A stretch of DNA of 64,000 nt, taken from contig JBAYIX010000002.1 of assembly GCA_041665385.1 (NCBI GenBank), positions 50,932 through 114,931 on the forward strand. Direction: 5' to 3'. Positions 6,703 to 39,022 of the stretch are shown here, in pieces. The position numbers and the translations under genes are program-made. Position 1 is the first letter of the stretch, and every line of letters begins with the position of its first letter. This DNA comes from Minisyncoccota bacterium (GTDB lineage Bacteria; Patescibacteriota; Minisyncoccia; Phycocordibacterales; PALSA-1337). Below the pieces are notes generated by a model, which saw only the letters and a list, made by a program, of their open reading frames with translations, was not told the origin of the DNA and ran no database searches.

Positions 6703-6810
6703 CGTCCCGCCTGCATCCTGCCTTTTCGCAAGATTTGAAATAGTTGTGCAGGGTCCGAGTATTGTAAATACTTCACAAATCTTGCGAAAAGGCAGGATGC
6801 AGGCGGGACG
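6703..6810. repeat. Giant-hairpin element A: perfect 35-bp inverted repeat around a 38-nt conserved loop core
   Basis: Arms are 6703-6737 and 6776-6810, exact reverse complements. Loop AAATAGTTGTGCAGGGTCCGAGTATTGTAAATACTTCA is identical to the element B loop. Confidence 0.85.
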
Positions 6811-6816
6811 AATAAC

Positions 6817-7698
6817 ATGAAGTTAACAACAAAAAGAATATCCATAGAAGACTATCCGATATTGCTCAACGAAATATCGAGCCCTCCCCCACACATGGAC
6901 TTTGCTGGCAGATTTCCAGATAAAAAAGACAAATATCTCTGTGTAGTAGGATCTCGTCACAACAGCGTATACGGTGAAGATGTCACAAGGAAGCTAATAG
7001 CGGGCCTCAAAGGCTATCCCATAACTATAGTCTCTGGTCTTGCTGTCGGTATTGACTCCATCGCTCACGAGGCCGCTCTGGAGAATGGACTGAATACGAT
7101 ATGCTTTCCCGGGTCTGGTTTGTCTCTATCTGTACTCTACCCAGCTGTAAAGCGCGATCTAGCGCTCCGCATCGTGGAGAGTGGTGGCGCGTTGTACTCA
7201 CAGTTCGGCATGAACCAGCTCGGAGACAAATGGACATTTCCGAATAGGAACCGCACCATGGCCGGTGCATCTCATGCGACTCTCATCATCGAAGCGGCAG
7301 AGAAGTCCGGCAGTCTCATCACGACCAGTCATGCCCGAGAATTTGGCCGGGAAGTATTCGCCGTACCAGGATCCATCATATCCGACTTGTCTTATGGACC
7401 ACACAGTCTTATTCGTGACGGCGCGACACCTGTATATTCTGCTGAGGATATCTTGCAGGGATTGGGATTCCAGGTCATACGGACAGATGGAATGATTTCC
7501 GCCTTGCCAAATTATTCTGAGATGAAGCTGGAACCAGATCAGAGAACTATCATAGATCATCTTCGCATCGAGAAGCTTTCATCTACAGGACTTATAGACA
7601 AGACGGGCTTTACAGCGACAAAACTCAATCTGGTGATTTCTGAACTCGAGCTATTGGGATTGGTAAAGGATGCAAATGGAATATATAGACTAATGTAG
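6817..7698 (+). CDS. dprA: DNA-processing protein DprA (Smf)
   Basis: Rossmann-like DprA core (GIDSIAHEAAL, GSGLS, TxxxAxE) and a C-terminal winged helix. Confidence 0.85.
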   Translation: MKLTTKRISIEDYPILLNEISSPPPHMDFAGRFPDKKDKYLCVVGSRHNSVYGEDVTRKLIAGLKGYPITIVSGLAVGIDSIAHEAALENGLNTICFPGSGLSLSVLYPAVKRDLALRIVESGGALYSQFGMNQLGDKWTFPNRNRTMAGASHATLIIEAAEKSGSLITTSHAREFGREVFAVPGSIISDLSYGPHSLIRDGATPVYSAEDILQGLGFQVIRTDGMISALPNYSEMKLEPDQRTIIDHLRIEKLSSTGLIDKTGFTATKLNLVISELELLGLVKDANGIYRLM

Positions 7699-7817
7699 GT
7701 AAAAGCGGACATGCAATGTGCTCTTTTTGCATGATTTGAAATAGTTGTGCAGGGTCCGAGTATTGTAAATACTTCACAAATCATGCAAAAAGAGCACATT
7801 GCATGCCCGCTTTTACC
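7698..7817. repeat. Giant-hairpin element B: 41-bp inverted repeat (1 mismatch) around the same core as A. It fills the whole convergent intergenic gap.
   Basis: Arms are 7698-7738 and 7777-7817. The loop is 100% identical to A. The arms overlap the dprA stop (7696-7698) and the desulfurase stop (7813-7815). Confidence 0.85.
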
Positions 7818-9036
7818 GGATGCGTCCAAGTAATTCTTTTATTATTTTCAATGCTTTCATCACCTCCCTCTCAGTACTCCACCGCCCAAAAGAAAACCGC
7901 ACAGAATTTTTGCTGTTCGCACCGATGGTTTTGAGCACGTAGGATTCATCTTCGTCACGCAGACAGGAGCTCTTGGTAGAAGCCGCAATACCGTGTGCAT
8001 CTAATTCCATTACGAAGAATTCACTCTCTATGCCGGGAATGGAAACATTTAGGATGTGGGGGGACACCGCACCATCGAAATTTGTGTCACGCTCATCACC
8101 CTTGGCACGTTCCCCATTTACCTTTATGTCCTTATTTATCCGAAGTAATTCATTCATAAAAAGTTTCTTGAGCGAGATGAGCCGGACTGACTCTGCTTCG
8201 CGTGTCTGGCTCACGATATTCACAGCCTCGGCAAACCCCATCACGCCTGGAAGATTTTCTGTACCCGAACGCAAACCCTTTTCCTGGCCTCCGCCATACA
8301 TGACAGGAGAAATAGGCAATGAACGCTTCTTGTAAAGTGCACCTATTCCTCTCGGACCAAAGACCTTACTACTGTCGAGAGTGAGCATATCCACACCGAG
8401 TTTTTCTACATTCAAGTCCTGATAGAGTCCCTGCGCGGCATCGGTATGCAAGAGCGGATATTTCACATCCTGATAGGCGAAAGCCGAGGTTTCGGCGTAC
8501 TTTTCCCTAGCTTGGCGGACCATCTTCGCTATCTCACGTATGGGTTCGACAGTACCGATCTCATTGTTCACAGTCATGACAGAGATGAGTACAGTGTCGG
8601 GACGGATCTGTTTTTTGAGACTATCGAAATCGACTGCGCCATCGCTATTTACTCGGATCACCTCTACCCGAACACCCTTTTCGCTGAGGTGGTTCGCACA
8701 TTCGCGGACGGACGAATGTTCTATGGCACTTATGAGCACATGCATGGAGTCATATTCGAGACCAGTATTGCGCAAGCGTTCGATCGAGCCTAATAGCGCA
8801 AGATTGTTACTCTCGGTACCACCAGAAGTGAAAGTGATGTCATCTGGATGAGCATGGAGATATTCCGCAACTGTTTTTCGTGCTGTCACGAGAGCTTCCT
8901 TTGCTAGGACGCCTTCGCTATACCAGGAAGAAGGGTTGGCATACATAGGGTCGGAATACTGCTTCATGGTGCGGAGAACACCCTCATCTATGGGAGTGAG
9001 CGAGGCATAGTCGAGATAGATGCGCTTTTTGAACAT
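7813..9036 (-). CDS. Cysteine desulfurase (NifS/IscS class V aminotransferase)
   Basis: PLP-lysine region and SGGTESNN motif. Start placed at the internal Met MFKKRIYLDYASLTP (ATG at 9036) rather than the upstream extension to 9234. Confidence 0.8.
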   Translation of the reverse strand: MFKKRIYLDYASLTPIDEGVLRTMKQYSDPMYANPSSWYSEGVLAKEALVTARKTVAEYLHAHPDDITFTSGGTESNNLALLGSIERLRNTGLEYDSMHVLISAIEHSSVRECANHLSEKGVRVEVIRVNSDGAVDFDSLKKQIRPDTVLISVMTVNNEIGTVEPIREIAKMVRQAREKYAETSAFAYQDVKYPLLHTDAAQGLYQDLNVEKLGVDMLTLDSSKVFGPRGIGALYKKRSLPISPVMYGGGQEKGLRSGTENLPGVMGFAEAVNIVSQTREAESVRLISLKKLFMNELLRINKDIKVNGERAKGDERDTNFDGAVSPHILNVSIPGIESEFFVMELDAHGIAASTKSSCLRDEDESYVLKTIGANSKNSVRFSFGRWSTEREVMKALKIIKELLGRIR

Positions 9037-9090
9037 GACATGAGTGTACAATATTTTGCCTTTTCTGGTAAGACATACGATAATGGTGCA

Positions 9091-9555
9091 ATGCAAACAA
9101 TATTTCAAAACCCACTTTTGGTCGGCTTCATAGCGCTCTGTATCACAAACGTCATTTTTCTCGGCATCATCCTGTGGATGTATTTCAGACAACGCAAATT
9201 CCTGGTGGGTTTTGATTCCGAAAATGTCAGCCAATCTCTACAGTTCGTCTCTGCAAATCTGCGCGACATGGAAAAATTTCGCAAAGAGATGGAAACATAT
9301 CTTACCCAGGTAGAGCGCCGTCTCCGGAAGAGTGTGCAGTCAGTGAATACGGTCCGCTTCAACCCCTTCAAAGGCACGGGTGACGGTGGCAACCAGAGCT
9401 TTGCGACAGCGCTCCTGAACGAAGACGGAGATGGTGTGGTCATTTCCAGTCTGCACTCGCGCGACCATACGAGGGTATTTTCCAAGCCGGTAGTAGGCCG
9501 CGAGTCAGAGATCGAGCTTTCTGAAGAAGAGCGGGATGCGATAGCGATGAGGTAA
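9091..9555 (+). CDS. Hypothetical membrane protein (one N-terminal TM segment)
   Basis: ORF 9040-9555. The start was moved to an internal Met (MQTIFQNPLL..) because the upstream ATG abuts the divergent desulfurase start. Confidence 0.45.
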   Translation: MQTIFQNPLLVGFIALCITNVIFLGIILWMYFRQRKFLVGFDSENVSQSLQFVSANLRDMEKFRKEMETYLTQVERRLRKSVQSVNTVRFNPFKGTGDGGNQSFATALLNEDGDGVVISSLHSRDHTRVFSKPVVGRESEIELSEEERDAIAMR

Positions 9556-9646
9556 GGAATTTTTTTGAGTGCAAATTTAGTGTCAAAAATTAGTTTGACT
9601 AATTCTTTTTTTACCAGTATAAATTAAACAAACATAGTACGGCGGC

Positions 9647-12226
9647 ATGCGTGTGCATGTCGCTTTTGACAACGAAATAATAATAAGAGAAAGGCAAAGT
9701 GTGAAAAAATGTATATCTGCGGTGTTTGCTGTATTGATCATTACTAACTTCTGCAATGAGGTTAAAAGTGAGATCAGGTATATGGTTACCGATATAAGCG
9801 GAAAAGAAACGGATATCATAAGCAGAGCATTTGGTATCAATAATCGTGGTCAAATAGGTGTTGATGGTAGAGTATCTGGGAAAAGCGGACTATTTATCTA
9901 CACCGAAGGCAAATTCGATCAGGTTGGGCCAGAGACAAATGATATTACATCTGGCTATGCGATAAATGATCTGGGTCAGGTCGTCGGTCGATCATTTCGC
10001 AACGGCACGTTTGGCGGTTACCCATTCATTGACAGAGGCGATGAGCTGATTGACTTCAATGACGGTGATCAGAGTCGACAAGGTGCATTATTGAGTATAA
10101 ACAACTTGGGTGATGCAGTCGGAGTTATCGATATAGGAGATCATGCAGAGGGCTTTACCTATGTCGGCAAACAGATCGGCCTCATAGGCACATTCGAATC
10201 TTCGGGTACATCTTTGATAGCCATCAATGATCTAGGTCACATGGCCGGAAATCTGAATGTTCCTGACTGGTCATCGAGGGAAGCCTTCATCTATGCGGAT
10301 GGAAAAATGAAAAGACTCGGTACCTTGGGTGGAGAGTATAGTTATGCCGTCGCAATGAACAACAGGGACCAGGTCGCCGGTATGTCACTCTTAAAAGATG
10401 ACAACCTCGCGCATGTGTTCCTATATTCAGACGGAGTCATGAAAGATATAGGTTCAAATCCGGATTCATATTTGAGTGTGAGTGATCTGAATATTCACGG
10501 ACAAATAGTTGGCTTTGTGGCATACAGTATAAAAGATCCAAACCATCTCACCTATCATGCATATCTTTTCTCGGAAAAAGAAAATGCAGACCTGAACACA
10601 CTCATCGATCCGACATCCGGCTGGGAACTGCACCAGGCATATGGAAACAATGACTGGGGTCAGATAATCGGAACGGGTTTGTTCAAAGGAAAATCAAAAG
10701 TGTTCCTACTCACTCCCCTGGGCGGGACGCCGATACAGGCGATACAGAAACAACCGGAACGGCCGACATATGGAGACTATCCGGTCAAGGAGGAAGGAAA
10801 GGATAGTCTGGTGGTGGTGACACATGGGTGGATAAAATCAGATAGTGATCCTACCGCATCGACTAAATGGGTTGAGGTAATGACAAATCATATATCTGAA
10901 TATTTTGTCAATAATAATATAAATAATTGGCAATTGTGCGGATATAGGTGGATAAATTACGCTCACATACCTAATTATCAAGGTGGACCCGAGACTGCTA
11001 TACGAAACTCTAGACAAATTGGTCAGAGTCTTGGTCTCAAAATATATCAACAAAAATACTCCCGTGTTCACTTCATCAGTCACAGTGCCGGCGCTGGTCT
11101 TATTCAAGCGGCAACAGATGTAATAAAAAAACACAATCCCTCTGTGCAAATCCAAGAAACATTTCTGGATCCGTATGTCGGGGCAGATTTCTCCGGCACT
11201 TCGTGGTATGGGACAAATGCTAATTGGGCAGATAACTACTCAAGTAAGGATAAGGAAACTGGAAATCATTATTTATCTTTTACCTATAATATTCTTCTAA
11301 ATGCGTACAACGTCGATGTCACCAGACTCGATGTTGCAAACAGGGTAAATATGCCCTACTGGACTACTGGTAACGATCAACCGTGTTACGTTACAGAATC
11401 AACTCATGGTTGGCCCGTAGAATTCTACCAGAATACAATCATTGGAAATACAACCAAAGAATATGAGGGATTTGGGTTTCAGTTGAGTCAGGAAGCGACA
11501 GAATGGGATTCGGTCTCAACAAGGTTCAAGGTCGGAAACACTAGTCCCGGACACATTCTCGGACATGCAGACCCGAACAATTGTCGTTTCAAATATCCGG
11601 TGCCATATTATCCTTCGTTCATCATGGACTTCATCGGTAATCCTTCCATACAAAGCGATACAGGCACAATTGAGAAATACTTAAATGGTAGTTTTGTCTC
11701 AAAAAGCGGTTCGCCAGTATGGATTGTAACTTCCGGTGTATCTACAAATGTGATTAATACAGTTTCGTTCGATGCGACATTCGGAAGCTTGACCGGATCC
11801 GAAGGACTCCTGACTGTTTATTGGAAAAGCAATATAGTTGGGTCTATTGACCAACGATACGTTCAAGATGGATTCCAACACTATTCCTTCCAATTTCCGA
11901 AAAATATCAGTAATGAATCATACTCACTCGGGTTTCGCCTGGACCCGTTTACGAAAATTCAGTCGGTGGTAATAGTAACGAATGTTATCGTATCAGTAAG
12001 CGGTGTAAGTGAGCCATTCTTACTCAAGCCTACAGGCAACACAAGCGATTCATATAGTTTACAATTGATAGGCCAAAAAGGATTTGAGTATAGGATTCAA
12101 TCCTCCGATGATCTATTCGATTGGAAAACTATTGCAGTCATTGTTAATACAACGGGTTCGGTGCAATTTATTGACACCGATACCACAGGGTCATCTCGTC
12201 GGTTCTACCGAGCGATAGTACCGTAA
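9647..12226 (+). CDS. Large secreted protein with HAF-type extracellular repeats, an alpha/beta-hydrolase (lipase/esterase GxSxG) domain and a C-terminal beta-rich domain
   Basis: Signal/TM peptide. About 8 repeats of the INDLGQVVG type. FISHSAGAG serine-hydrolase motif. 859 aa. Confidence 0.7.
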   Translation: MRVHVAFDNEIIIRERQSVKKCISAVFAVLIITNFCNEVKSEIRYMVTDISGKETDIISRAFGINNRGQIGVDGRVSGKSGLFIYTEGKFDQVGPETNDITSGYAINDLGQVVGRSFRNGTFGGYPFIDRGDELIDFNDGDQSRQGALLSINNLGDAVGVIDIGDHAEGFTYVGKQIGLIGTFESSGTSLIAINDLGHMAGNLNVPDWSSREAFIYADGKMKRLGTLGGEYSYAVAMNNRDQVAGMSLLKDDNLAHVFLYSDGVMKDIGSNPDSYLSVSDLNIHGQIVGFVAYSIKDPNHLTYHAYLFSEKENADLNTLIDPTSGWELHQAYGNNDWGQIIGTGLFKGKSKVFLLTPLGGTPIQAIQKQPERPTYGDYPVKEEGKDSLVVVTHGWIKSDSDPTASTKWVEVMTNHISEYFVNNNINNWQLCGYRWINYAHIPNYQGGPETAIRNSRQIGQSLGLKIYQQKYSRVHFISHSAGAGLIQAATDVIKKHNPSVQIQETFLDPYVGADFSGTSWYGTNANWADNYSSKDKETGNHYLSFTYNILLNAYNVDVTRLDVANRVNMPYWTTGNDQPCYVTESTHGWPVEFYQNTIIGNTTKEYEGFGFQLSQEATEWDSVSTRFKVGNTSPGHILGHADPNNCRFKYPVPYYPSFIMDFIGNPSIQSDTGTIEKYLNGSFVSKSGSPVWIVTSGVSTNVINTVSFDATFGSLTGSEGLLTVYWKSNIVGSIDQRYVQDGFQHYSFQFPKNISNESYSLGFRLDPFTKIQSVVIVTNVIVSVSGVSEPFLLKPTGNTSDSYSLQLIGQKGFEYRIQSSDDLFDWKTIAVIVNTTGSVQFIDTDTTGSSRRFYRAIVP

Positions 12227-12246
12227 TAGTTCTTTGCAGATTCACA

Positions 12247-12273
12247 GGGCTCGCTTCGGCGGGCTCTTTTTTT
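12247..12273 (+). terminator. Intrinsic terminator of the large secreted protein gene
   Basis: GGGCTCGC-TTCG-GCGGGCTC (UUCG tetraloop) followed by T7. Confidence 0.6.
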
Positions 12274-12559
12274 ATATTCCATACAGAAAAATAATAAAAA
12301 AAGATGGGTATTGAAATATAAAAACTATTCCTCCCAATAGGATAACCAGATATCCAATTAATTGAGAATTATTTAATTTAATAATTCGAAATCCAAAAAA
12401 CATTCCCAATATAATCAAGATCAAACTTGATCCTATTATAAGAATATTGAACATGCCTGGTAGTGAAGATACAAAAAATAATAATGTGGAAAGCGCGTAG
12501 CAGGTCACGGATATAATAATGTTTGTATGTTTTTTCATGTTCATATAATTATACACCAC
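12272..12559 (-). CDS. Small 2-TM membrane protein, paralogue 1 of the tandem array
   Basis: 95 aa, two hydrophobic helices, MKKH.. start. Conserved promoter-like upstream TATAAT..ATGAAA. Confidence 0.55.
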   Translation of the reverse strand: MVYNYMNMKKHTNIIISVTCYALSTLLFFVSSLPGMFNILIIGSSLILIILGMFFGFRIIKLNNSQLIGYLVILLGGIVFIFQYPSFFIIFLYGI

Positions 12560-12796
12560 TTATGGATATACACACTACCTACCGAATGACTATCCTGTGA
12601 GTCACGAAGAGCGTTTGAGTGGATTCCTTTATATTGACGCCTGACCTACAGCATTAACAGATAGGACTAAAATAAGGAACAAGCAAATTATCCGAATAAA
12701 AAAACAGTGCAACTAGGATGATATAGGAGACAAATGATAGATGGACGTTTTTTAGGTTTTTTATATTTAAATTATACCTTTTTAATGAAATCTGAA

Positions 12797-13102
12797 TTAA
12801 TATCCCGCAAAACCAGACATGAGTAGAAGATATCCGACTATGACAACAATTCCCATAACAGTACAAAGATTGCCAGCCCAGGCTGATTCTTTGATTTTGT
12901 TGCTTTTGAAACCGAAAAATACACCGCTGAAGAGTAATATAAATAAACCGATTAAAACGATCGCATTCATTACAATTCCAATATTAGAAGGTATAGAAGT
13001 TGTGCGAGTGAAATCGTCACCAATATTTATCCAGGTAATAAACCAAATCATTGCTAGAATGTAGGAACCTATAGAATAGAAAATATTTTTATATTGTTTC
13101 AT
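12797..13102 (-). CDS. Small 2-TM membrane protein, paralogue 2
   Basis: Start at internal Met MKQYKNIF (ATG 13102). Same architecture and upstream motif as its neighbours. Confidence 0.55.
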   Translation of the reverse strand: MKQYKNIFYSIGSYILAMIWFITWINIGDDFTRTTSIPSNIGIVMNAIVLIGLFILLFSGVFFGFKSNKIKESAWAGNLCTVMGIVVIVGYLLLMSGFAGY

Positions 13103-13172
13103 GTTCAATATTATACACCATTTACGAAATCGCAGCCCTGTTAGGCATACACCTGCTACGGCAAGCTCTTTT

Positions 13173-13466
13173 TTATATAATTGAATCAATCATCATAAGA
13201 ATAGGTATTTCCAAGACCCATGTATAAAACAAACTCAATATACCCAAAATTAACAATATTTTTGCTAATCTTGAGGAATCACTAACCTTAGTTCCTTTGA
13301 AACTGATTATTATTCCAACTACTATTAATAAATAAAAGATGAAAAGATATCCGCTACCAACCAGATGAAATGTATATAGTAATATATATGCAAGTATATA
13401 AAGTGCCAAGGCCAATAGGGTGATCATATTCATTGATAAAGTTTTCATGTTGAAATAATTATACAC
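13173..13466 (-). CDS. Small 2-TM membrane protein, paralogue 3
   Basis: 97 aa, MKTLSMNM.., two TM helices. Confidence 0.55.
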   Translation of the reverse strand: MYNYFNMKTLSMNMITLLALALYILAYILLYTFHLVGSGYLFIFYLLIVVGIIISFKGTKVSDSSRLAKILLILGILSLFYTWVLEIPILMMIDSII

Positions 13467-13578
13467 TATTTATAAATATTTTTATACGCCGAAGAAATAA
13501 TCGAGTATCATTATTTTTTCTCATGTTTATGTAATTTAATATAATCTTCAATGTTAATTGTTCCCTCCCGGCATGAAC

Positions 13579-13815
13579 TTATTGATTTTGCGACAAAGAC
13601 ATAGCAAAAGAGAGTAATAGCAATATTATTATGCCACCTACACCAAGTATTGTAGCCATAACTGAAGAACCGTTTTTTCTATACTCCTTGAAAGCTAGGA
13701 AGATTCCAATTAGTAATAGTACTGCTGAAGTAAAATAAATAATATTATTTTGGATACCAGTATCTCTAATTGTCACAAAAGGAAATCCAAAATTGATAAG
13801 CAATAGTACTAACAA
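13579..13815 (-). CDS. Small 2-TM membrane protein, paralogue 4 (more divergent)
   Basis: 78 aa, two TM helices. Lacks the conserved ATGAAA start context. Confidence 0.4.
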   Translation of the reverse strand: MLVLLLINFGFPFVTIRDTGIQNNIIYFTSAVLLLIGIFLAFKEYRKNGSSVMATILGVGGIIILLLLSFAMSLSQNQ

Positions 13816-13890
13816 ATAGCATACGACGGAAATAATGAGGTTAATATTTTGAGTTACAGGTTTGAAATTAATAATGATATTATTTATTAT

Positions 13891-14184
13891 TTACTGGCAA
13901 TTATATGCAGGGGTACATACACTTTGTATATAAAAAAATCCAAATATTATCAATACACCGATCAACATGAGTAAGTTACTCGCTATATCCGATTCCTTAT
14001 TTTTGCTTGCTTTATATGCAAAAAATATACCAAAGGCTACCAGTAATAAGCTTACAATGATAAATACATATCCATATTTCAGTGAACCGTTTACTGATAC
14101 GAGAAGTGAGGGTAAAACATAAGTAACGACAAATCCTAGGACATAGAAACAAAGAGATAGTGTAACATTTTTATATTCTTTCAT
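13891..14184 (-). CDS. Small 2-TM membrane protein, paralogue 5
   Basis: 97 aa, MKEYKNVT.., two TM helices. Upstream TAATTATAC..CATGAAA motif shared with paralogues 1-3. Confidence 0.55.
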   Translation of the reverse strand: MKEYKNVTLSLCFYVLGFVVTYVLPSLLVSVNGSLKYGYVFIIVSLLLVAFGIFFAYKASKNKESDIASNLLMLIGVLIIFGFFYIQSVCTPAYNCQ

Positions 14185-14223
14185 GTTGACGTAATTATAC
14201 TACTTCCCTATTTCAAAACCATG

Positions 14224-14253
14224 TTGACAGAGTAAGGCCTACGGTGGTATAAT
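14224..14253 (+). promoter_or_regulatory. Near-consensus sigma70 promoter: TTGACA, 18 nt, extended -10 TGgTATAAT
   Basis: TTGACA at 14224-14229 and TATAAT at 14248-14253 with TG at -15/-14. The ATG at 14266 follows about 6 nt after the predicted TSS (leaderless-like). Confidence 0.6.
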
Positions 14254-14265
14254 GGTGACAGAAGC

Positions 14266-14526
14266 ATGAAAACAACACGAATGCTCAGTCCCGAGGAAGC
14301 GGAGCAATTCTTCGCCCAATTGCGGAGAGTAGTTGAAAATGCTCCGAAGTCAGAACCCCGAGCCCCGTTTAGCCTTCCATCCAGCCACTACACATTCCAT
14401 AGGGCCGAGAAGCCCGTGCGTAAGTCGGCTCGAGTGGATCGCTCAGATGGAGACCAGATCGGCTGGATGACCGAATGGGAGGAAAGAGAGGAACAAAGAA
14501 ACACCAGATTCAAATTCAAAATGTAG
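14266..14526 (+). CDS. Hypothetical small protein (86 aa) driven by the consensus promoter
   Basis: Only substantial ORF between the promoter and the bidirectional terminator at 14546-14576. No recognisable domain. G+C-normal, unlike the flanking A+T-rich array. Confidence 0.35.
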   Translation: MKTTRMLSPEEAEQFFAQLRRVVENAPKSEPRAPFSLPSSHYTFHRAEKPVRKSARVDRSDGDQIGWMTEWEEREEQRNTRFKFKM

Positions 14527-14545
14527 GAATACCATGCAGATCCGT

Positions 14546-14576
14546 AAAAAGCGCCGAACAACAATCGGCGCTTTAT
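14546..14576. terminator. Bidirectional intrinsic terminator between the small ORF and histidine kinase 1
   Basis: AAAAA-GCGCCGA-ACAACAA-TCGGCGC-TTTAT. Confidence 0.6.
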
Positions 14577-16202
14577 CTATGCTTTTTCGAATGGTTCCAT
14601 CTCAACTATGAATGTCGAGCCCTTGCCTTCTCCGCGCGACTCTGCACGGATAGTGCCATGATGAGCCTCTATCATCTCTTTTGCCACATACAGTCCGAGA
14701 CCGGTACCTTTTATATTCACCTTGTTCGCATTATTTGCCCGACTGAACTTCTGGAAAAGTCTGGGCAATATTTCCGGAGCGATGCCGATACCAGTGTCGC
14801 TGATCTTGAATATGAATTTGTGATTCTTGCTATCATAGGAAAGTTCGGCATCTACCCTGCCGCTCGGTGTGTATTTCATGGAGTTGTCTATGAGGTTTAC
14901 GATGACTTGCTTGAGCTTGTCTCGGTCTGCAGTGGTCCGATAGTCACTGTGAGATTCCGAAGCATGGAATGAAAATGCAAGTTTTGTTTTCTCGATATTG
15001 GGTTTGATTTCTCCTATAACATCCTCGATGAGCTGTTTCAGGTCGATGGTTTCGAAAGCATACTTCATGGTACCGAGCTCTATCCTGCTCACATTCAGAT
15101 AGTCATCGACGATACTGACCAGAGTCTTCGAGGATTCAAATATTCGGCTCACGCCAGTCTTGGCTTCTTCGGATATCGCACCCATGTCACCTTCGAGTAG
15201 GAGCGAGGCATAACCCTTCATGGCGGTGAGCGGTGCACGGAGCTGGTGGTTCGCAAAGGAGACGAATTCGGATTTCTGACGATCCAGGTCGGTGAGACGC
15301 GTGTTGGCTTTTTGGAGATCTGCTGCAAGTTTTTCAATGCGTTCGCGTTGATTCACTTCTTGATAAAGCATTTTAAGCAACAAAATAGTGAACCATACTG
15401 TAAAAGCAAGTAGCAGTGAATTAATAAATATATTATAAAAAGTTTGTGCTAAGAGTATATTTATCACAAATACAATATTTATCGCCCCGGCAAAAAGCTG
15501 AATTGCAACATTTTTAATATTAAATAGTTTGTAATGAAGAGCCGCGTAACTAAATATAAATGGACTAGCCATAAGCATAAACGTCCCTATCAAATCATAG
15601 GGTTGTGGAATTGAATATCCTAACATAAGAGGAAAATTTATTGATCCACCAATGAAACCTAATATTGATCCAATAAAAAGATAGCCCATTCTGTAACGGA
15701 TCTCTCCCCTTGAGTGAATAAGGCTTCTAAGTAAAAAAATTAAACCCGTAAGAATGAAACCTATGTAACCAATAATTATAAAGTATAAGTAGAGCGGACC
15801 AGCAATAGGCCAATACGGAAAGACCGATATACTTCTTACCCCCGAAACATAATAATCTGTAAAACTGAACGATGCAAAAAAGAACGTAATTAAGTAACAA
15901 ATTCTTATAAAATACTTAGCCTTGATTTCATAATCAATAGCGGTAAATACCCAGTGTAAAAATAGTACGGGTATAAATGTTGCCCCTAGATTTAATAGTC
16001 TGGCAAAAAATAATGCCGTCTCGGGATCCGAATTAGTTTTCAATAGACCGAACCATGAATAACTCCAGACAGCAAAAGCGAATGCTAAGAGAGCGAATCT
16101 ACGTGCTTGTACATTTTCTTGATTTTTCCAAATAGCAAAACATCCGAAACCAGTGAAAAAGAAAGCTGTTATTATTACTGATGATTGATAGATGTCAAGC
16201 AT
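14577..16202 (-). CDS. Sensor histidine kinase with N-terminal 7TM sensor domain (HisKA + HATPase_c)
   Basis: H-box HQLRAPLTAM, plus N, G1 and G2 boxes (DNSMKYT, DTGIGI, GTGLGL). The N-terminal half is polytopic and strongly A+T-rich. Confidence 0.85.
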   Translation of the reverse strand: MLDIYQSSVIITAFFFTGFGCFAIWKNQENVQARRFALLAFAFAVWSYSWFGLLKTNSDPETALFFARLLNLGATFIPVLFLHWVFTAIDYEIKAKYFIRICYLITFFFASFSFTDYYVSGVRSISVFPYWPIAGPLYLYFIIIGYIGFILTGLIFLLRSLIHSRGEIRYRMGYLFIGSILGFIGGSINFPLMLGYSIPQPYDLIGTFMLMASPFIFSYAALHYKLFNIKNVAIQLFAGAINIVFVINILLAQTFYNIFINSLLLAFTVWFTILLLKMLYQEVNQRERIEKLAADLQKANTRLTDLDRQKSEFVSFANHQLRAPLTAMKGYASLLLEGDMGAISEEAKTGVSRIFESSKTLVSIVDDYLNVSRIELGTMKYAFETIDLKQLIEDVIGEIKPNIEKTKLAFSFHASESHSDYRTTADRDKLKQVIVNLIDNSMKYTPSGRVDAELSYDSKNHKFIFKISDTGIGIAPEILPRLFQKFSRANNANKVNIKGTGLGLYVAKEMIEAHHGTIRAESRGEGKGSTFIVEMEPFEKA

Positions 16203-21157: not shown

Positions 21158-21177
21158 GCGCATTGGAAACAATGCGC
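21158..21177 (+). terminator. Intrinsic terminator (GAAA tetraloop) after the 20708-21136 gene
   Basis: GCGCATTG-GAAA-CAATGCGC followed by TTTT. Confidence 0.55.
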
Positions 21178-21293
21178 TTTTCTCTCGGGCACACAACTTT
21201 CTTTTTGTCGGATTTGAGAAGTTGTGCAAAGTCCGGGTAATCATAATAGCTCGCAAATCTGACAAAAAGAAAGTTGTGTGCCCGAGAGAAAAG
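21177..21293. repeat. Giant-hairpin element C: 40-bp inverted repeat (1 G.T wobble) around a 37-nt core related to A/B/E
   Basis: Arms are 21177-21216 and 21254-21293. Loop AGAAGTTGTGCAAAGTCCGGGTAATCATAATAGCTCG. Confidence 0.85.
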
Positions 21294-21302
21294 CTGTAGT
21301 GC

Positions 21303-32867: not shown

Positions 32868-33362
32868 TTATATCTGCATTACTCGAACCAAATCACACGC
32901 CCTACTCATTATTCTGTCACCTACTTCACCCCAATCGAAGTATTTTTTGTAATCAGAGGCATCGATCAATTTTATTTCCGTAATATCACCGTCCGGGTCC
33001 TTTATAAAAGGTCCGTACGGCTCAACAATACAAACCGAGCGTGTTTGTCTGAATATGCGGTCAGATTCATATATGTCCTGATATCCTATAAATTTCTGAT
33101 TCAGAACCTTCATATTTGTTTCTTCCCTTACTTCACGGACTACAGCCTGCTCATAACTTTCCCCGAGTTCGATACCGCCACCTGGTGGAGCCCAGTAGCC
33201 TTTGTCATGAGCGTATACTATAACGAGCTTACCGCGACAAAAGCAGATTGCGTGAACGGTTAGAAGAATTTTACCCTTAACATCTCTTAATGGATCATCT
33301 TCACGATAATTAAGGTCGAGTTTTTGACCGGAACGATTGGTATAAGAAGATTTTATTTCCAC
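32868..33362 (-). CDS. NUDIX hydrolase
   Basis: Nudix box GGGIELGESYEQAVVREVREETN. Confidence 0.8.
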   Translation of the reverse strand: MEIKSSYTNRSGQKLDLNYREDDPLRDVKGKILLTVHAICFCRGKLVIVYAHDKGYWAPPGGGIELGESYEQAVVREVREETNMKVLNQKFIGYQDIYESDRIFRQTRSVCIVEPYGPFIKDPDGDITEIKLIDASDYKKYFDWGEVGDRIMSRACDLVRVMQI

Positions 33363-33583
33363 ATTGGTAATTATATCCGATTTGGACTACCTGTGCATAA
33401 CCTGTGTATAACTTCCCTCTTTACAAAACCAATGGAATATGCTATACCTAGGCTAGATTTGAAGTGATCGCTCGTTGAAAACACGAGACAGAGCTTCGGA
33501 TAAACAATTTGTTTAACCTGTTTTGTGCATTGGTCACTTGGCGGTGATCTTCTTGCCCAAAACGCAACTGAAAGGGTTGTGAA

Positions 33584-34531
33584 ATGAAAACGACTCGTAG
33601 TTTGTTTGCGACCATTCTGGTCGCGCTCACTGCCCTTGTTACGCAAGGGCAAGAATTGGTCGATGGGTTACCCGCGTGGTTACCTATCGGAAGTGATGAG
33701 ATTCTCATCAATTGGGCTGTCACCAACAGTCCCTCTTGGGTCGGTGCAGGTATCACCTATACCAACACGGCCGGTGAACCCGTTAAGTTCATACCTTATA
33801 TGGTTCCACTCAAAACAGAATCGCTAGATGATTTTCGAGAGTGGGCTTCCTACGCAGGAAACTCCATCATCGATGGTCTACGTGGAGCGACAGGTAGAAG
33901 TCAGATCTCGACCAATTCTACCATTCGCTTCTATGCCAGCCTTGCACATCGGCTGATCGATGGAACTCCAGGTGGAACTCCTTACGAGTTCATCTCTATT
34001 TATACTAACATCGGAAAGATAAAGGACATAACTCCTGACACTTTCCGTAACATGCCACTCAACAACAGGTATGCGAGAATTTACATCCCCGGTCTAAACG
34101 AGATCGAGATCGATGTGAAGGATAAGCACCATATGTTGTGGAAGAACGGTGTCGAAACATACACCTATAACGGCCTAGCCAACCAGGCAGACGGTTTCAT
34201 ACCTCCCAAGGAGATGATCATCACAAACGTGCTGACGCTCCGAACATGGTACTCCCATTACCCTGTCGTACGTATAACTCTCGGCACAACCAATGGCGTG
34301 AGGAGGACATACACGGGGTTTGGCGACCCACTCGATATCAAGATGGAGTACACCAAGTCCGAGATCATCTTGCATACGGCTCGCGGCTCGTACACTGAAA
34401 TAGAATGGTCCGAAGATCTGGTAAACTGGAACCCATACGCGGAGTTTCAGTCGACCGACACGGACTACACGTTCAGAGTACCAGTCGATCCATATCTGTC
34501 TCGTAGATTCATTCGAGGAAAGTCGCATTAG
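33584..34531 (+). CDS. Secreted hypothetical protein
   Basis: Signal peptide MKTTRSLFATILVALTALVTQG. No recognisable domain. Confidence 0.6.
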   Translation: MKTTRSLFATILVALTALVTQGQELVDGLPAWLPIGSDEILINWAVTNSPSWVGAGITYTNTAGEPVKFIPYMVPLKTESLDDFREWASYAGNSIIDGLRGATGRSQISTNSTIRFYASLAHRLIDGTPGGTPYEFISIYTNIGKIKDITPDTFRNMPLNNRYARIYIPGLNEIEIDVKDKHHMLWKNGVETYTYNGLANQADGFIPPKEMIITNVLTLRTWYSHYPVVRITLGTTNGVRRTYTGFGDPLDIKMEYTKSEIILHTARGSYTEIEWSEDLVNWNPYAEFQSTDTDYTFRVPVDPYLSRRFIRGKSH

Positions 34532-34604
34532 TGACTCTCCTTAGCAAAATTCCCCTATACGCAAGTGTAGGGGAACTTTTTTGCTTTAGAAATCACTCTA
34601 ATCT

Positions 34605-36536
34605 CTAAATTTCTATAACTGATGATGATGTAAGCTTGAGAGTTACAAATCCAGATATTGGAGCACGCGGATCTATATTTGTATTATCCTCACAGGACAC
34701 ATCGAATCGATAATCTCCATTTTCTACACCGACAGTGTCAAGTCCGTCAACCGTTTGGTCAGACTTCAATTTATTATCATCCCAATACGGCTTCGATGGG
34801 TCAGAAGGATCCAGTTTCCAGTGAGCATAAGCTGATCCATTTGATACTCTTGTCACACTTGTTTGACATTCATATCCCGTAACTTCCTCAGGTATCTGCC
34901 ACCACAGACCGAATGTTCCACCTTTCTTCGCACTATGGATCCTACCTGATTTCGTCAATGCCTCTGTAGATGTCTTACCGATAAATATCTTCAGATCACT
35001 CGATGGCACAGCTCCACCTTCCTGATGCACAGTTCCGCAAACGTCCGGTGCAGAAGGCGAGGTTCCATCGGCATTGGTTGCCACCACATACACATTGTAA
35101 TTTTGAGCGACAGGGTTCGAGTTGTTACTCGGGAAGCCGCTAACAGTAATGCTCGGTGGCACAGTAGACAGTGTCGAATAGGTTATACCATTTATGCTCC
35201 ACTGATACTTATATCCTGTACCAGCACCGCCTGTTGCAGTGATTTTTGCTGCGGGGATTGTGAGAGAACCTTGTATCACCGAACCATCGGAATTGAGAGT
35301 TGCCATGGTATATCCAGGAGCATAAGGTGCCGAACACGATACTACCGGCGGGGGCGTTCCCTGCACGCAACCAGGGCAGTTCACCGGAGGAGCTGCGTAA
35401 AATCTCGTCGCAGGGTCATCAATAGCATATCCATTTCTACCAGGGGTATTTGCATTGAAGTTCACCCAGCCCACGACATCACCAGCCCAAGCAAAACCTC
35501 GGAAGACGCCGGTTTTCGGATTCATAGTCACACCACCATTGTCAGTTGTGAGGTCAGGAGACGTATGGTTGCTACCAGAGAGCCGCATACAGCCGTCCCA
35601 GCCACCTGCGACTGCGGGGTTGGCCTTGGGAGTTAGGAATCGTGCCCAGCCCGTGACTTCTCCAGTTTTGAAATCGAGTTGAGCCTTGGTGGCAGAAGGA
35701 CAATCGGAAATATCTGCCTCGTTGAAACTGAGCCAACCAATACTATTTGACCATGCATAACCTGTGATATCGGCGACATCACCGGTCGTATTTGCAACAA
35801 TGACTTTGTAGTTGGAACGACTGCAACCAGTACTCGAAGGTGTCGGCGTAGGAGATGCTCCTGGGGCAACTTGACTACAATTGAGGTTGATATAACCGGT
35901 ATTGGATGACCATGCCCAACCATAGACATTGCCACCGCGACTGACGCCAACAGTGACATTCGTGGTTTCTGTTGTTACTTGGGATGCAAAATTCTCCACG
36001 CGCACAGTGATTATATGGGGGCCGTTCAGTCCGGAACCTATCCTCCAAACAACCGATCTCGATGGGTCTGTCCAGGCAGACGCGGCCATAGAAACAGCAT
36101 CATCTAGGAGTACGGTAGAATCCACAGAGATAATTATCCTTCGGATAAATAGTCCGGTTATATTTACATTGATATCCACATCCTGAGCAGTATTGAACAC
36201 TGCACCTTCTGTTGGAGAAGTCATGGTCACTACCGGCGCTATAGCACCTCGAAACGGGTCAAATCCGCTACTAGGTGTGGGTGTAGCAGAACTAGATGAC
36301 GTCGGTCTCGGTAAGCCTATAGAAGTCGGGCTTGCAGAAGGCGATGCAGTAGACGTAGGCGACGCCGAGGCACTAGCAGAAGGAGGAGTAGCAGATGCGC
36401 TAGCAGTAGAAGTCGGTGAAGCTGGGGGCGGAATGATTATCGGCCTAGGCGAACTCGTCTGTGCCGACACAACCTGGAAAAGGAAGCTGAAGCAACCGAC
36501 CGCAAGAACGCTAAATATTATGAAATTTTTTCTCAT
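34605..36536 (-). CDS. Large secreted/surface protein with a Pro/Ser/Thr/Ala-rich linker and repeated GYAWS.N.GW..FN motifs
   Basis: Signal peptide, low-complexity PTSTASAS linker, and at least 4 repeats of the GW-containing motif. Confidence 0.65.
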   Translation of the reverse strand: MRKNFIIFSVLAVGCFSFLFQVVSAQTSSPRPIIIPPPASPTSTASASATPPSASASASPTSTASPSASPTSIGLPRPTSSSSATPTPSSGFDPFRGAIAPVVTMTSPTEGAVFNTAQDVDINVNITGLFIRRIIISVDSTVLLDDAVSMAASAWTDPSRSVVWRIGSGLNGPHIITVRVENFASQVTTETTNVTVGVSRGGNVYGWAWSSNTGYINLNCSQVAPGASPTPTPSSTGCSRSNYKVIVANTTGDVADITGYAWSNSIGWLSFNEADISDCPSATKAQLDFKTGEVTGWARFLTPKANPAVAGGWDGCMRLSGSNHTSPDLTTDNGGVTMNPKTGVFRGFAWAGDVVGWVNFNANTPGRNGYAIDDPATRFYAAPPVNCPGCVQGTPPPVVSCSAPYAPGYTMATLNSDGSVIQGSLTIPAAKITATGGAGTGYKYQWSINGITYSTLSTVPPSITVSGFPSNNSNPVAQNYNVYVVATNADGTSPSAPDVCGTVHQEGGAVPSSDLKIFIGKTSTEALTKSGRIHSAKKGGTFGLWWQIPEEVTGYECQTSVTRVSNGSAYAHWKLDPSDPSKPYWDDNKLKSDQTVDGLDTVGVENGDYRFDVSCEDNTNIDPRAPISGFVTLKLTSSSVIEI

Positions 36537-36622
36537 TTTTTCTTTTGTTTATGATAAAAGCCATTACAACTGGTGTAATGATATCACATGCCATAAATGC
36601 GGCCTGTGGATAGTGGGAATAG

Positions 36623-36735
36623 GCAAGTAAAAGAGATGGCCTGCACTTTCAGGCAAATAGCAGAGCTACCTCGAAAACAGCCGACCACAATATTCTTCTA
36701 TTTGCCTGAAAGTGCAGGCCATCTCTTTTACTTGC
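36623..36735. repeat. Giant-hairpin element D: perfect 38-bp inverted repeat with the core in opposite orientation. The right arm overlaps the valS stop codon.
   Basis: Arms are 36623-36660 and 36698-36735. The loop reverse complement shares TTCGAGGTAGCTC and TTGTG blocks with element E. Confidence 0.8.
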
Positions 36736-38881
36736 CCGGCCACTTTTCCACAATGAGTAGTCTTTTGCCTGGAATAAGCATACATGACCATATCTCTTCC
36801 GTCACAAAAGGAATAAATGGGTGCAAAGCTTTCAAAAGTTTAGCTAAAATAAGCAATAAGAGTTGTTTCTTGGAATTTTTCTCATCTTCAGTACCCTCTT
36901 TCAGAGTTTTCTTGCTCTCTTCTAGGATCACATCGGCAAATCGGTGCCAGGCATAATGATACAGTTTCTCTCCTGCCATATAAAAGCGAAAATTTTCCAT
37001 ATCCGTAGTCACATCGGTAAGGAGACGGCTCAATTCTTCTTCGAGCTTGCGGTCATCTGCTGTCCAGCTGTCGAAATCCTCCACAAAAGCCGTATTTTCT
37101 GTTTCGGTAAAGACAAATCGGGAAATATTCCATAGCTTGTTCACAAACTTTTTATAAGCGGTAATCTTGTCTTCGGAAAGAGCGAGTGATGTGCCCGGAG
37201 TATTGCCGACCACGAGACCCATGCGGAAAGCGTCGGTTCCGAACTTGGCGGTGAGATCCAGAGGATTGATGACATTACCCTTACTCTTGCTCATCTTTTG
37301 CCCCTTGCCATCGAGGACGAGTCCGTGGAGGTAAACAGTCGCAAATGGCACCTCGCCTGTGACATACAAACCGAGCATTATCATACGTGACACCCAGAAA
37401 AAGATGATCTCGCCCGCCGTTTCCATGACATCAGTGGAATAATAATTCTTGAAATCTGGACTATCCGGAAAACCAAGTGAAGCAAAAGGCCATTGAGACG
37501 AAGAAAACCAGGTATCGAATGTATCGTTATCTTTCCTGACTTCCCCGCCGCACTTTGCACATTTTGTGATCTTGTTGTCCAGATCTACGTAACCTTCGCC
37601 GCATTTTTCGCAGATCTTGGCGGGAATGGGTATGCCCCACACGATCTGACGAGAAATATTCCAGTCCATAATGTTTCCCAACCAATGTTCAGTGATCTTC
37701 TCATAATGTTCGGGTATGTATACAACCTCCTTATTTTTTATTTTCTCCAATGCCTTCTCAGCCAAAGGTTTCATCTTTACGAACCACTGACTCTTCACCT
37801 GCGGTTCTATGGTCGTACCACATTTGTAGCAAGTACGGACCACATGTTTGTAGTTTTCATCTATTTTTTCTACGAGTCCCTTTACTCGAAGTTTCTCGAC
37901 TATGAGCGCTCGGACCTTACTGATATGCTGGCCTGCGAACTCTCCGGCAATGGGCAGGAGCTTTCCTTTTTCATCTATTATTTGTTCCTTGTCCAAACCA
38001 TGTCTCTCGGCAATGTCAAAGTCCACCGGATCGTGCCAAGGTGTGATAGTCATGACACCAGTGCCAAACTCCATATCTATGGCCTCATCTTTGATAACGG
38101 TTGCAGTTATGGGGCCATTGATCCATTCCAGGTCTATCTTTTGGCCGTCTTTGTACTGTGCATATCTCTTATCGGCAGGATGCATGACAACGTATTTGTC
38201 ACCGAACTTTGTTTCGGGACGAGAAGTACCAATGGTGAAAGGGCCGTACTTGAGATAGTAGAATTTTTCAGTGCGTTCCTCGTCCTTTATTTCCAGATCA
38301 GAAAATGAAGTCTGATGCTTGGGGCACCAGCTGACTATACGCTTTCCCCTGTATAGGAGACCGTCGGCGGAGAGTTTTGCAAATGTATTGTAAACAGTCC
38401 GCACAATAGCGGGATCGAGAGTGAACTTTTCCCGGGACCAATCACAGGAAGCACCCATCTTCCTCACTTGAGACTTGATATTTGCAGAATTTGTAAGAGT
38501 AAAGTCCAGAATTTCCTTGTAAAGGTCAGCAGGCGGTATTTCGAAACGTGTGCGACCTTCTTTTTCCAGTTTCTTTTCGTATACGACTTGTGTTTCAAAG
38601 CCAGCGTGGTCGAGACCGGGTAACCAGAGTGTCCTCTTGCCACGCATACGCTGGTAGCGGGTGATGATATCTTCGATAGTCATGACGAGACCGTGGCCGG
38701 CATGGAGAGAGCCGTTGGCATTGGTGGGAGGCATGAGCATACAAAATGTCTCTGCATCGGGAGCAGTGACGCCCACCTTCACACACTGGTCCGGGTCAAA
38801 AAAACCACTCTTTTCCCAGAGCGAGTAGATCTTGTCCTCGGTAGACGCGGGATCGTAGGGTTTCAGGAATTTTCCATCCAT
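36728..38881 (-). CDS. valS: Valyl-tRNA synthetase (short form)
   Basis: HAGH (HIGH) and KMSKS motifs, a ValRS-like editing domain and a zinc-knuckle CxxC pair. 717 aa. Confidence 0.8.
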   Translation of the reverse strand: MDGKFLKPYDPASTEDKIYSLWEKSGFFDPDQCVKVGVTAPDAETFCMLMPPTNANGSLHAGHGLVMTIEDIITRYQRMRGKRTLWLPGLDHAGFETQVVYEKKLEKEGRTRFEIPPADLYKEILDFTLTNSANIKSQVRKMGASCDWSREKFTLDPAIVRTVYNTFAKLSADGLLYRGKRIVSWCPKHQTSFSDLEIKDEERTEKFYYLKYGPFTIGTSRPETKFGDKYVVMHPADKRYAQYKDGQKIDLEWINGPITATVIKDEAIDMEFGTGVMTITPWHDPVDFDIAERHGLDKEQIIDEKGKLLPIAGEFAGQHISKVRALIVEKLRVKGLVEKIDENYKHVVRTCYKCGTTIEPQVKSQWFVKMKPLAEKALEKIKNKEVVYIPEHYEKITEHWLGNIMDWNISRQIVWGIPIPAKICEKCGEGYVDLDNKITKCAKCGGEVRKDNDTFDTWFSSSQWPFASLGFPDSPDFKNYYSTDVMETAGEIIFFWVSRMIMLGLYVTGEVPFATVYLHGLVLDGKGQKMSKSKGNVINPLDLTAKFGTDAFRMGLVVGNTPGTSLALSEDKITAYKKFVNKLWNISRFVFTETENTAFVEDFDSWTADDRKLEEELSRLLTDVTTDMENFRFYMAGEKLYHYAWHRFADVILEESKKTLKEGTEDEKNSKKQLLLLILAKLLKALHPFIPFVTEEIWSCMLIPGKRLLIVEKWPGK

Positions 38882-38908
38882 GATTTGTTATATTAACAAA
38901 AAAGAGAC

Positions 38909-39022
38909 AAAGAGCCCAGCACACAATCATAATTTTCATAAAAGTGTAAGAAGTTGTGCAGGGTCAACGTTCGAGGTAGCTCTACACTTTTATGAAAATT
39001 ATGATTGTGTGCTGGGCTCTTT
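38909..39022. repeat. Giant-hairpin element E: perfect 40-bp inverted repeat around a 34-nt core AGAAGTTGTGCAGGGTCAACGTTCGAGGTAGCTC
   Basis: Arms are 38909-38948 and 38983-39022, exact reverse complements. The loop shares AGTTGTGCAGGGTC with A/B. Confidence 0.85.

Follow-up and report, generated by a model that had tools for sequence, protein, structure and literature searches.

What are the giant hairpins that lie between the genes of a Minisyncoccota bacterium, and how do their stems come to be so perfect? We addressed this question in a 64,000-nt stretch of contig JBAYIX010000002.1 (assembly GCA_041665385.1, positions 50,932 to 114,931 of the forward strand), hereafter referred to as the window. 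An initial annotation, made from the letters of the window, had described five near-perfect inverted repeats of 35–41 bp, here called copies A to E, with a conserved core in their loops. In our tentative reading, to which we give a probability of about 40%, these hairpins form a lineage-specific, dispersed family of palindromic (fold-back) repeats at transcript boundaries, in which a shared apex sits on locus-specific stems and one arm is copied from the other at the DNA level.

The window contains exactly five copies, each 108–120 bp long and all intergenic, and both the coordinates and the stems agree with the five sites first described (Table 1). Folding of either strand gives −69 to −81 kcal/mol, with z scores of −11.6 to −15.2 relative to shuffled sequences, and none of 200 shuffles folds as well. 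The core AGTTGTGCARRGTC is present in exact form on the plus strand of copies A, B, C and E. In copy D the core has diverged and lies on the minus strand (ATTGTGGTCGGC...TTCGAGGTAGCTC), in agreement with its description as inverted, and TTCGAGGTAGCTC is common to the loops of D and E. An nhmmer profile of the loop, a covariance model (105–130 bits in sense and 62–75 bits in antisense orientation) and a direct-repeat search (family D1) were each run over the window, and each recovered the same five copies and no further member. No additional copy was found in the flanks of 3.1 kb upstream and 7.6 kb downstream. The outer ends of the five copies are CGTCCC, GGTAAA, GCTTTT, GGCAAG and AAAGAG. The hairpins occupy 57–105% of their intergenic gaps, so the earlier impression that they fill almost the whole gap holds for some copies and not for every one.

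Identity between the copies is layered, being highest in the loop, lower in the inner stem and lowest in the outer stem. Loop similarity is significant in 8 of the 10 pairs (z 2.3–8.5), the exceptions being A–D and B–D (z 1.3–1.4). The inner ~18 bp of the arms are homologous among A, B and C (identity of 83% for A–B, 67% for A–C and 78% for B–C; z 2.2–4.4), and the inner arm of D resembles those of A (72%, z 3.1) and B (61%, z 2.7). Local alignments of whole arms give z scores of 7.4 for A–B, 3.8 for B–C and 3.5 for C–E. The outer, GC-richer halves show no convincing similarity between copies (z at most 2.0), and no occurrence of the outer arms was found elsewhere in the window. The initial annotation had called the arms unrelated between copies; this is right for the outer halves, the only locus-specific part, and wrong for the inner ~18 bp. 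It had also reported that A and B are identical over 50 nt, which we can confirm for the central 50 nt, and the direct-repeat search extends the match to 94% identity over 70 nt. In the ~11 bp of stem beyond these 50 nt, A and B differ at 3 positions, and all three differences are mirrored on the opposite arm. An RNAalifold consensus of the five copies contains 41 pairs, 33 of which show double-sided changes.

We compared the window with 80 dprA loci of related bacteria of the candidate phyla radiation (CPR), about 1 Mb in total, and with four other loci. Relatives whose DprA is 50–60% identical hold giant perfect hairpins in the same gaps flanking dprA, with different stems and different ~37-nt loops. 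Locus L074 (DprA 58% identical) has the same order of seryl-tRNA synthetase (SerRS), dprA and aminotransferase genes as the window, and both orthologous dprA gaps are occupied, by hairpins of 45 bp and 41 bp that are 100% complementary and have 37-nt loops. The two loops share GAGAAGCAGTGG...ACACGG, and consist of conserved ends around an 18-nt variable middle. L079 likewise has a pair of hairpins around dprA, and in all three genomes (window, L074 and L079) the loop on one side of dprA is similar to that on the other. Moreover, a giant hairpin lies upstream of dprA in L078, L085 and L097 and downstream of it in L076, L081 and L088, and the gap 3' of dprA holds three different apex families across lineages. 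Ordinary conserved terminators would have sufficed if relatives carried the same stems with the same loops, as the initial annotation had pointed out; the orthologous gaps show the opposite, and the hairpins thus form a patterned family. Its further idea of a small exchangeable core carried on palindromes fits the layered identity and the three apex families.

The comparison of loci also shows how the layers change. Neighbouring copies are the most alike (A and B, 1 kb apart; D and E, 2.2 kb apart), and the same is seen in L074 and L079. The orthologous hairpins of L085 and L097 have similar outer arms (64%, z 3.5) and loops that are only ~59% alike, which is the reverse of the paralogues A and B; in both pairs, differences in length between homologous arms are mirrored. 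Giant hairpins reach a density of 10.9 per 100 kb in the window, compared with 8.4 for the closest relatives and 1.8 for distant relatives. L074 and L075, two samples of the same species, differ by a single nucleotide polymorphism in 6479 bp, located in a hairpin arm; with one informative pair (n=1), enrichment of polymorphisms in arms was set aside.

We then pooled 32 non-redundant giant hairpins of the clade, each with a stem of at least 25 bp and a loop of at least 10 nt. In their 1028 stem positions there are 1017 Watson-Crick pairs, 1 G.T, 4 A.C and 6 other mismatches, that is, no excess of G.T over A.C. The stems also end sharply, since pairing in the 8 nt outside them is 25%, the random level. 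Where RNA selection is the only force that maintains a stem, G.U pairs are usually accepted and the ends tend to fray; neither is seen in these hairpins. The left arm of the L074 and L078 hairpins extends into a block conserved across genomes (...TTTAGCACAATTATTTT.ATTTGCA...GGTAAAAT), which on the minus strand reads as a promoter-like site of SerRS and in the window lies just outside the arm. As a result, the opposite arm in these two loci carries an inverted copy of the native flank. Arms also take in stop codons (copies B and D) and the T-tract of a terminator (copy C). This pairing pattern argues against selection on RNA only and fits arm-to-arm copying at the DNA level. It has the marks expected of template switching at quasi-palindromes, namely substitutions and indels mirrored between the arms, a lack of wobble bias, and perfect pairing that may continue beyond any transcript.

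All five copies stand at gene borders, and are therefore probably co-transcribed with neighbouring genes. Copy A lies between the divergent genes SerRS (minus strand) and dprA (plus strand), with its end 6 nt short of the dprA ATG (6817). Copy B lies between dprA (plus) and the convergent aminotransferase gene (minus) and overlaps both stop codons, namely the last base of the dprA TAG and the TAA of the aminotransferase gene. Copy C separates a convergent pair, an open reading frame (ORF) of 139/142 aa (plus) and an SDR gene (minus), and its left arm starts inside the T-tract of a small upstream hairpin or terminator, GCGCATTGgaaaCAATGCGC. Copy D is directly 3' of a class I aminoacyl-tRNA synthetase (aaRS) gene, and its right arm includes the last two codons and the TAA stop of that gene; the stop codons first noticed in the arms of B and D are thus real. 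Copy E is found 27 nt upstream of the start of the same aaRS gene (minus strand) and 14 nt downstream of an ORF of 112 aa. In A and B the core has the sense orientation relative to dprA, and in D relative to the aaRS gene; in E it is antisense with respect to either neighbour. The flanking genes have housekeeping functions and belong to a Patescibacteria (CPR) bacterium, whose DprA has 63% identity to its best non-self match; the named matches are of Parcubacteria type. We rejected an assembly artefact as the source of the hairpins, which lie between intact genes and recur in independent assemblies or samples (L074 and L075; the window and contigs of ENA and Logan). The window is identical to ENA contig k141_613101 across the 17.7 kb compared, and over 8.5 kb its right end shows a single mismatch to ENA contig k141_1287188. 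At window ~55000–55500, beside the hairpin element at 54825-54997, the ENA assembly of this sample splits into these two contigs.

Several observations concern the surroundings of dprA and other palindromes of relatives. A conserved AATAAY(C)ATG that lacks a Shine-Dalgarno sequence precedes the dprA start (window 6811-6819; L074 4469-4481; L078; L079), and in the window, L074, L078 and L079 the giant stem ends 4–12 nt upstream of the start. Such a start suggests either unusual translation initiation or a hairpin that must be processed first. Intergenic perfect palindromes without a spacer, with arms of 20–27 bp, occur at L074 1126-1165, L121 13597-13650, L127 9881-9934 and L135 11344-11385. 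The L074 palindrome occupies a gap in which the window has two hairpin elements, and shares with them the outer GTCCCGA...TCGGGAC. Classical REP-like (repetitive extragenic palindromic) families with conserved arms (TGTCATTCCYGCGAAGGCRGGAATC; TGAGGGTAACCCTAGCCCA) are present at L130 9302-9377 and 9889-9966, at L090 11169-11260 and in three copies in L127, and some of these sit directly upstream of dprA. By hand count, about 14 of 25 giant hairpins of relatives lie within 300 nt of dprA, a count biased by short contigs centred on dprA. With this bias in mind, the count suggests that the flanks of dprA are a hot spot for palindromic elements.

Searches of databases gave the hairpins no known identity. 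Rfam scans (gathering thresholds and E at most 10; the whole window, copy A and 3050-3430) found no ribozyme or bacterial RNA family, which agrees with the earlier statement that no hammerhead or twister motif is evident. The only matches were to animal and plant miRNA-precursor models, through their generic hairpin shape, with 12–52 bits against thresholds of 50–245. The core pattern AGTTGTGCARRGTC(N9-16)TASYTC matched 30 times in IMG/VR and 42 times in GTDB representatives. These are single matches in unrelated taxa or in coding sequence, with flanking stems of at most 8 bp, and we therefore consider them chance matches; two further viral scans for the core gave nothing. In its exact form the core is specific to this genome. 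The claim of a wider family accordingly depends on architecture and position, and not on homology of the core. A cross-genome nhmmer profile of the loops was too weak to find anything. We found no description of this hairpin architecture in the searchable literature. In a survey of perfect inverted repeats (arms of at least 10 bp, spacers of at most 8 bp) in 118,019 genomes, the highest densities at phylum level were in two CPR phyla (PMC13155455).

Three simpler identities for parts of the hairpins were tried and rejected. As a general sigma-70 promoter, the loop offers weak 9/12 matches on the minus strand (TTCGCA-16-TACAAT in A and TTTGCA-16-TACAAT in B), which are no more frequent than in shuffles and have no counterpart in C by eye. 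A tRNA-derived loop was considered for GGGGTGTAGCTC in the second L074 hairpin (B') and for TTCGAGGTAGCTC in D and E; ARAGORN gives only two real tRNAs, both dissimilar to the loops. GTCCCG/CGGGAC, considered as a terminal tag, is no more frequent than expected in the window overall, yet 6 of the 11 GTCCCG sites are inside hairpin elements.

Among known repeats, the closest in habit are REP, BIME and REPIN sequences and the elements resembling miniature inverted-repeat transposable elements (MITEs), such as Correia/nemis, ERIC, RPE and SMAG. These are also short, non-coding, dispersed intergenic long hairpins at gene borders that are co-transcribed, some copies are kept at orthologous sites, and Correia hairpins are substrates of RNase III. 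Their inverted termini, however, are conserved and recognised by an enzyme, and their stems are imperfect, whereas here the outer stems are locus-specific and perfect, only the apex is shared and the copy number is low (5 in ~75 kb). The initial annotation had regarded the hairpins as the opposite of REP, BIME and MITE architecture. The locus-specific outer stems bear this out, but the contrast is less absolute than it had proposed, because the shared unit includes an inner inverted repeat of ~15–20 bp. In the five copies we saw no repeated palindromic unit of the REP/REPIN kind (~20–35 nt with a GTAG/CGTC tag), and only copy A starts with CGTC. A Pfam search of the 64-kb window and ~11 kb of flanks found no RAYT gene (Y1 transposase). 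Integron attC sites are likewise gene-flanking palindromes of variable sequence and conserved structure, recognised as folded single strands, but they are imperfect, with extrahelical bases and conserved outer R''/R' boxes (RYYYAAC / GTTRRRY); here the stems are perfect, the ends unconserved and the neighbours housekeeping genes, and the window contains no integron integrase (intI). The repetitive hairpin elements of sponge mtDNA (RHE; PMC2800124) and the palindromic repeats of Volvox (PMC2670323) are also intergenic families in small, compact genomes, suspected to be selfish and to spread by recombination and not by a transposase, but they belong to organelles, the whole hairpin sequence is conserved in them and their stems are shorter and imperfect. 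The present hairpins stand out by combining three features: flawless stems specific to each locus, a common apex whose size is fixed, and persistence at orthologous gene borders.

These features can be joined in a tentative mechanism. The apex module, which comprises the ~37-nt loop with AGTTGTGCARRGTC and ~15–20 bp of AT-rich inner stem, is shared between copies and would have been copied or homogenised among the hairpins of one genome, most strongly between neighbours; the GC-richer outer stem belongs to the locus. One arm may then serve as template for renewed synthesis of the other, in an event of the quasi-palindrome correction type (intra-strand template switching or gene conversion). 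This could keep the stems Watson-Crick and extend them outward until they reach neighbouring functional sequence, with no selection on the RNA fold. The hairpins themselves probably serve as generic transcript-end, leader or processing hairpins. In the Ripley model, one arm of an inverted repeat is reportedly copied from the other, as is said of single mutations in laboratory reporters at the thyA and lacZ quasi-palindromes of E. coli. Its hotspots share with the 32 pooled hairpins the perfect palindromes and the mirrored substitutions and indels. To our knowledge, such correction has not been described as a genome-wide builder or keeper of stems of 35–45 bp, nor as growing outward into flanks.

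A bolder variant, which we regard as rather doubtful, would be a so far undescribed behaviour of small CPR genomes. In it, apex modules of ~70 nt, non-coding and with a loop fixed at ~37 nt, would move into hairpin tips or convert them. Copying templated by the hairpin, possibly set off by a loop-recognising enzyme, would restore the stem and make it longer. Each module would then end in a flawless palindrome of 25–45 bp of local sequence, and would be mobile without conserved termini or target duplication. IS1397/ISKpn1, IS110-family elements in REP loops and class C group II introns at terminators use hairpin tips or terminators as preferred landing sites, and insertion into a loop would leave a common insert on an outer stem specific to the locus. 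Those elements are, however, kilobases long and encode their own enzyme, whereas the insert here would be ~70 nt, non-coding and palindromic, with seamless junctions that leave no internal loop.

Several results weigh against the reading of a palindromic repeat family perfected by copying at the DNA level. The copy number is low, with five copies within 32 kb and none in the other ~35 kb examined. The loops of other genomes have no significant similarity to the window core, either in pairwise comparison or with the covariance model. Among the relatives we caught neither an empty site nor an apex swap, the nearest relative in the databases having a DprA of 63% identity. The termini differ between copies, similarity as well as complementarity breaks off at the stem ends, target-site duplications were not seen on inspection of the flanks, and Pfam reveals no candidate transposase, recombinase or nuclease among the window proteins. 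Moreover, we infer the template-switching step from the pairing pattern itself. The loops of 12 elements in 6 genomes, when short imperfect inner stems are allowed, are all 34–39 nt long, and such near-constancy hints at a specific partner or function beyond a purely mutational model. Retention beside dprA in lineages so diverged suggests selection.

The last two points lead to the rivals in which the RNA is what matters. A functional structured RNA, acting as a cis leader or trailer or as an excised small RNA, could present a loop read by a protein and an RNase III duplex that controls the stability or translation of the mRNA; for example, the dprA start codon, located 6 nt beyond stem A, could be exposed in this way. 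In Neisseria, the Correia/nemis elements are an established case of hairpin repeats that are co-transcribed and processed by RNase III. The position 5' of dprA and the ~37-nt loop are kept in the window, L074, L078, L085 and L097, where the stem ends 2–12 nt before the dprA start and leaves no room for a Shine-Dalgarno sequence. The stems covary, the loop is the best conserved part within the genome, and the covariance model favours the sense orientation in L074 B' and in L078. We nevertheless consider this explanation unlikely, and the earlier suggestion of an RNase III-processed small RNA kept by RNA selection fits poorly. Sharp stem ends, and G.T pairs that are no commoner than A.C (a single G.T among 1028 positions), are not what RNA selection leaves behind, and the orientation of the core is inconsistent, with E antisense to both neighbours, D in sense, and C between convergent genes. 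If transcription of dprA starts at or beyond the SerRS promoter-like block into which the arms of L074 and L078 run, their outermost pairs lie beyond the upkeep of an RNA fold. Orthologous loops also diverge as fast as arms (L085 and L097), and no Rfam family matches. Unusually long intrinsic or bidirectional terminators and leader hairpins, sharing ancestry by local duplication, are still less probable. The outer parts of B, D and E do consist of an A-tract, a GC-rich stem and a T-tract, in the same style as the 22-bp terminator hairpin of tRNA-Glu in this genome, and B and C lie between convergent genes; but A lies between divergent ones and C has its T-tract 5' and its A-tract 3'. An intrinsic terminator has a stem of ~5–15 bp, a loop of 3–8 nt and a 3' U-tract, whereas the five copies have stems of 35–41 bp and loops of 34–38 nt, and the 35–45-bp stems with 37-nt loops of the clade are far beyond those norms. 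Nor would terminators explain the common loop core and its homogenisation within the genome.

The same constancy of the loop would also be expected if the hairpin were a DNA recognition site, in which an enzyme encoded elsewhere in the genome (HUH nuclease, RAYT-like or IS110-like enzyme, recombinase or resolvase) acts on the hairpin or cruciform and its specific apical sequence. Such an enzyme could nick in or near the loop and either mobilise the apex into hairpin tips or prime fold-back synthesis that restores a perfect stem. An enzyme that binds DNA hairpins would be expected to impose perfect, symmetric stems and a loop conserved in sequence and constant in size, and to be indifferent to orientation. 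Different apex families occupy the same gap across lineages, and the zero-loop perfect palindromes of relatives may represent empty sites or scars. There are also known insertion sequences whose targets are the loops of REP hairpins. This possibility too we judge unlikely, because no candidate enzyme was found by Pfam in the 64 kb and its flanks, where the only recombinase and Rep genes are those of an integrated element beside tRNA-Gln. Target duplications and conserved outer termini are lacking, and the core is absent from viral contigs and GTDB representatives. A very improbable alternative is that of solitary guide-like RNAs related to the stem-loop units of TIGR arrays or to box C/D RNAs. 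TIGR arrays also combine variable palindromic stems with a loop of constant size carrying short conserved motifs, and occur in CPR bacteria and their phages; in architecture and in their size of ~36–37 nt, tigRNAs and stem-loop units resemble our elements (PMC12045711). The L074 loops have conserved ends around the variable 18-nt middle, and the loops of L079 and L088 are bracketed by GA/GA. TIGR units, however, stand in tandem arrays beside a Nop-domain Tas gene and have box C/D loops with two variable spacers of 8–12 nt. We found no tandem or interspaced array in the window and, by Pfam, no Nop-domain or Tas protein among its proteins. On direct reading the window loops lack RUGAUGA (TGATGA) and CUGA (CTGA) boxes and a stem-adjacent GA, and their middles form subfamilies and not diverse spacers. 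Neither arms nor loops match phage DNA; as CRISPR-like spacers, the five arms had no match in 50,697 phage genomes, a weak test given the poor sampling of CPR phages.

Table 1. Positions and structure of the five giant hairpins and of other hairpin elements in the window
Feature	Position	Strand	Arms or closing stem	Loop or inner module	Core or motif
Copy A	6703..6810	+	6703-6737 / 6776-6810; 35 bp, 100% complementary	6738-6775, 38 nt	6742-6755
Copy B	7698..7817	+	7698-7738 / 7777-7817; 41 bp, one A.C mismatch	7739-7776, 38 nt	7743-7756
Copy C	21176..21294	+	21176-21216 / 21254-21294; 41 bp, one G.T mismatch	21217-21253, 37 nt	21220-21233
Copy D	36622..36736	-	36622-36660 / 36698-36736; 39 bp, perfect	36661-36697, 37 nt	diverged, ~36681-36692 on minus strand
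Copy E	38909..39022	+	38909-38948 / 38983-39022; 40 bp, perfect	38949-38982, 34 nt	38952-38965
Nested hairpin	3080-3245		same architecture	other apex family	apical CAAGGATTC
Family 2	3240-3397		158-nt rod; 30 bp, perfect	inner 20-bp hairpin 3290-3351	junctions CGAGGACTGTCTGAG / GCGAGTTCCGCAG
Nested element	40929-41080		36 bp, one mismatch	80-nt nested module; homologous module L097 20309-20462	
Reference hairpin ("empty")	45706..45754	-	22 bp, one bulge; directly after tRNA-Glu; ordinary long A-tract/T-tract terminator	TTAT	
GC-rich element	52762-52920		15-23 bp	module sharing motifs with 54825-54997	GAGGGAC / GTGTCCCGAGGAA
GC-rich element	54825-54997		21 bp, perfect	131-nt module	GAGGGAC / GTGTCCCGAGGAA

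The window also contains other hairpin elements (Table 1), and some of their apex modules have homologues in relatives. The same long perfect closing stems occur around these other modules, so stem perfection is a property of the lineage and not of the AGTTGTGCARRGTC core. The apical loops of 3080-3245, of 40929-41080 and of the homologue of the latter in L097 share CAAGGATTC. Furthermore, 40929-41080 and this homologue have the same junctions (TCGCCC... / ...CGGGRCTCRAA) and different 36-bp closing arms. Family 2 is also present in L076 (10010-10168, reverse complement), L097 (15759-15923) and L081 (10928-11086, reverse complement), and the gap that it occupies differs between genomes; its junction motifs are conserved across lineages, and its shape is like that of 6S RNA, without an Rfam match. 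Both GAGGGAC..TTT(C)GGAG and GTGTCCCG(A)GGAA are found within the long closing stems of each GC-rich element, and 54825-54997 lies between genes for a LexA-like repressor (55014-55583) and a UmuC/DinB-family polymerase (53452-54804). Elsewhere, a Rep-like gene (REP_ORF2-G2P/RepSA) and a large serine recombinase gene adjoin tRNA-Gln (L073 1492-3795, 3.1 kb upstream of the window; window 596-667). This region is probably an integrated mobile element, and a similar recombinase is found at the same place in a relative. A stretch of low GC content (31–32%) at window ~12200–14600 contains small ORFs, each preceded by a repeated sequence of ~26–50 nt, AATATTTTTATATTGTTTCATGTTCA (D5/D8/D9).

If copying at the DNA level is indeed what perfects these stems, the intergenic structure of CPR genomes would be shaped by a palindrome-perfecting process and not by selection on RNA folds alone, and short apex sequences could spread among hairpins without the usual hallmarks of transposons. 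This would provide a concrete model for the dynamics of inverted repeats in genomes with reduced repair capacity. For searches of RNA motifs, it would mean that perfect covariation in these genomes need not indicate RNA function. Should apex modules instead home into hairpin tips, they would represent a new route to mobility and a new way of making structures at gene boundaries. The hairpins that abut the start or stop of dprA in several lineages are candidate controls of the expression of this competence gene.

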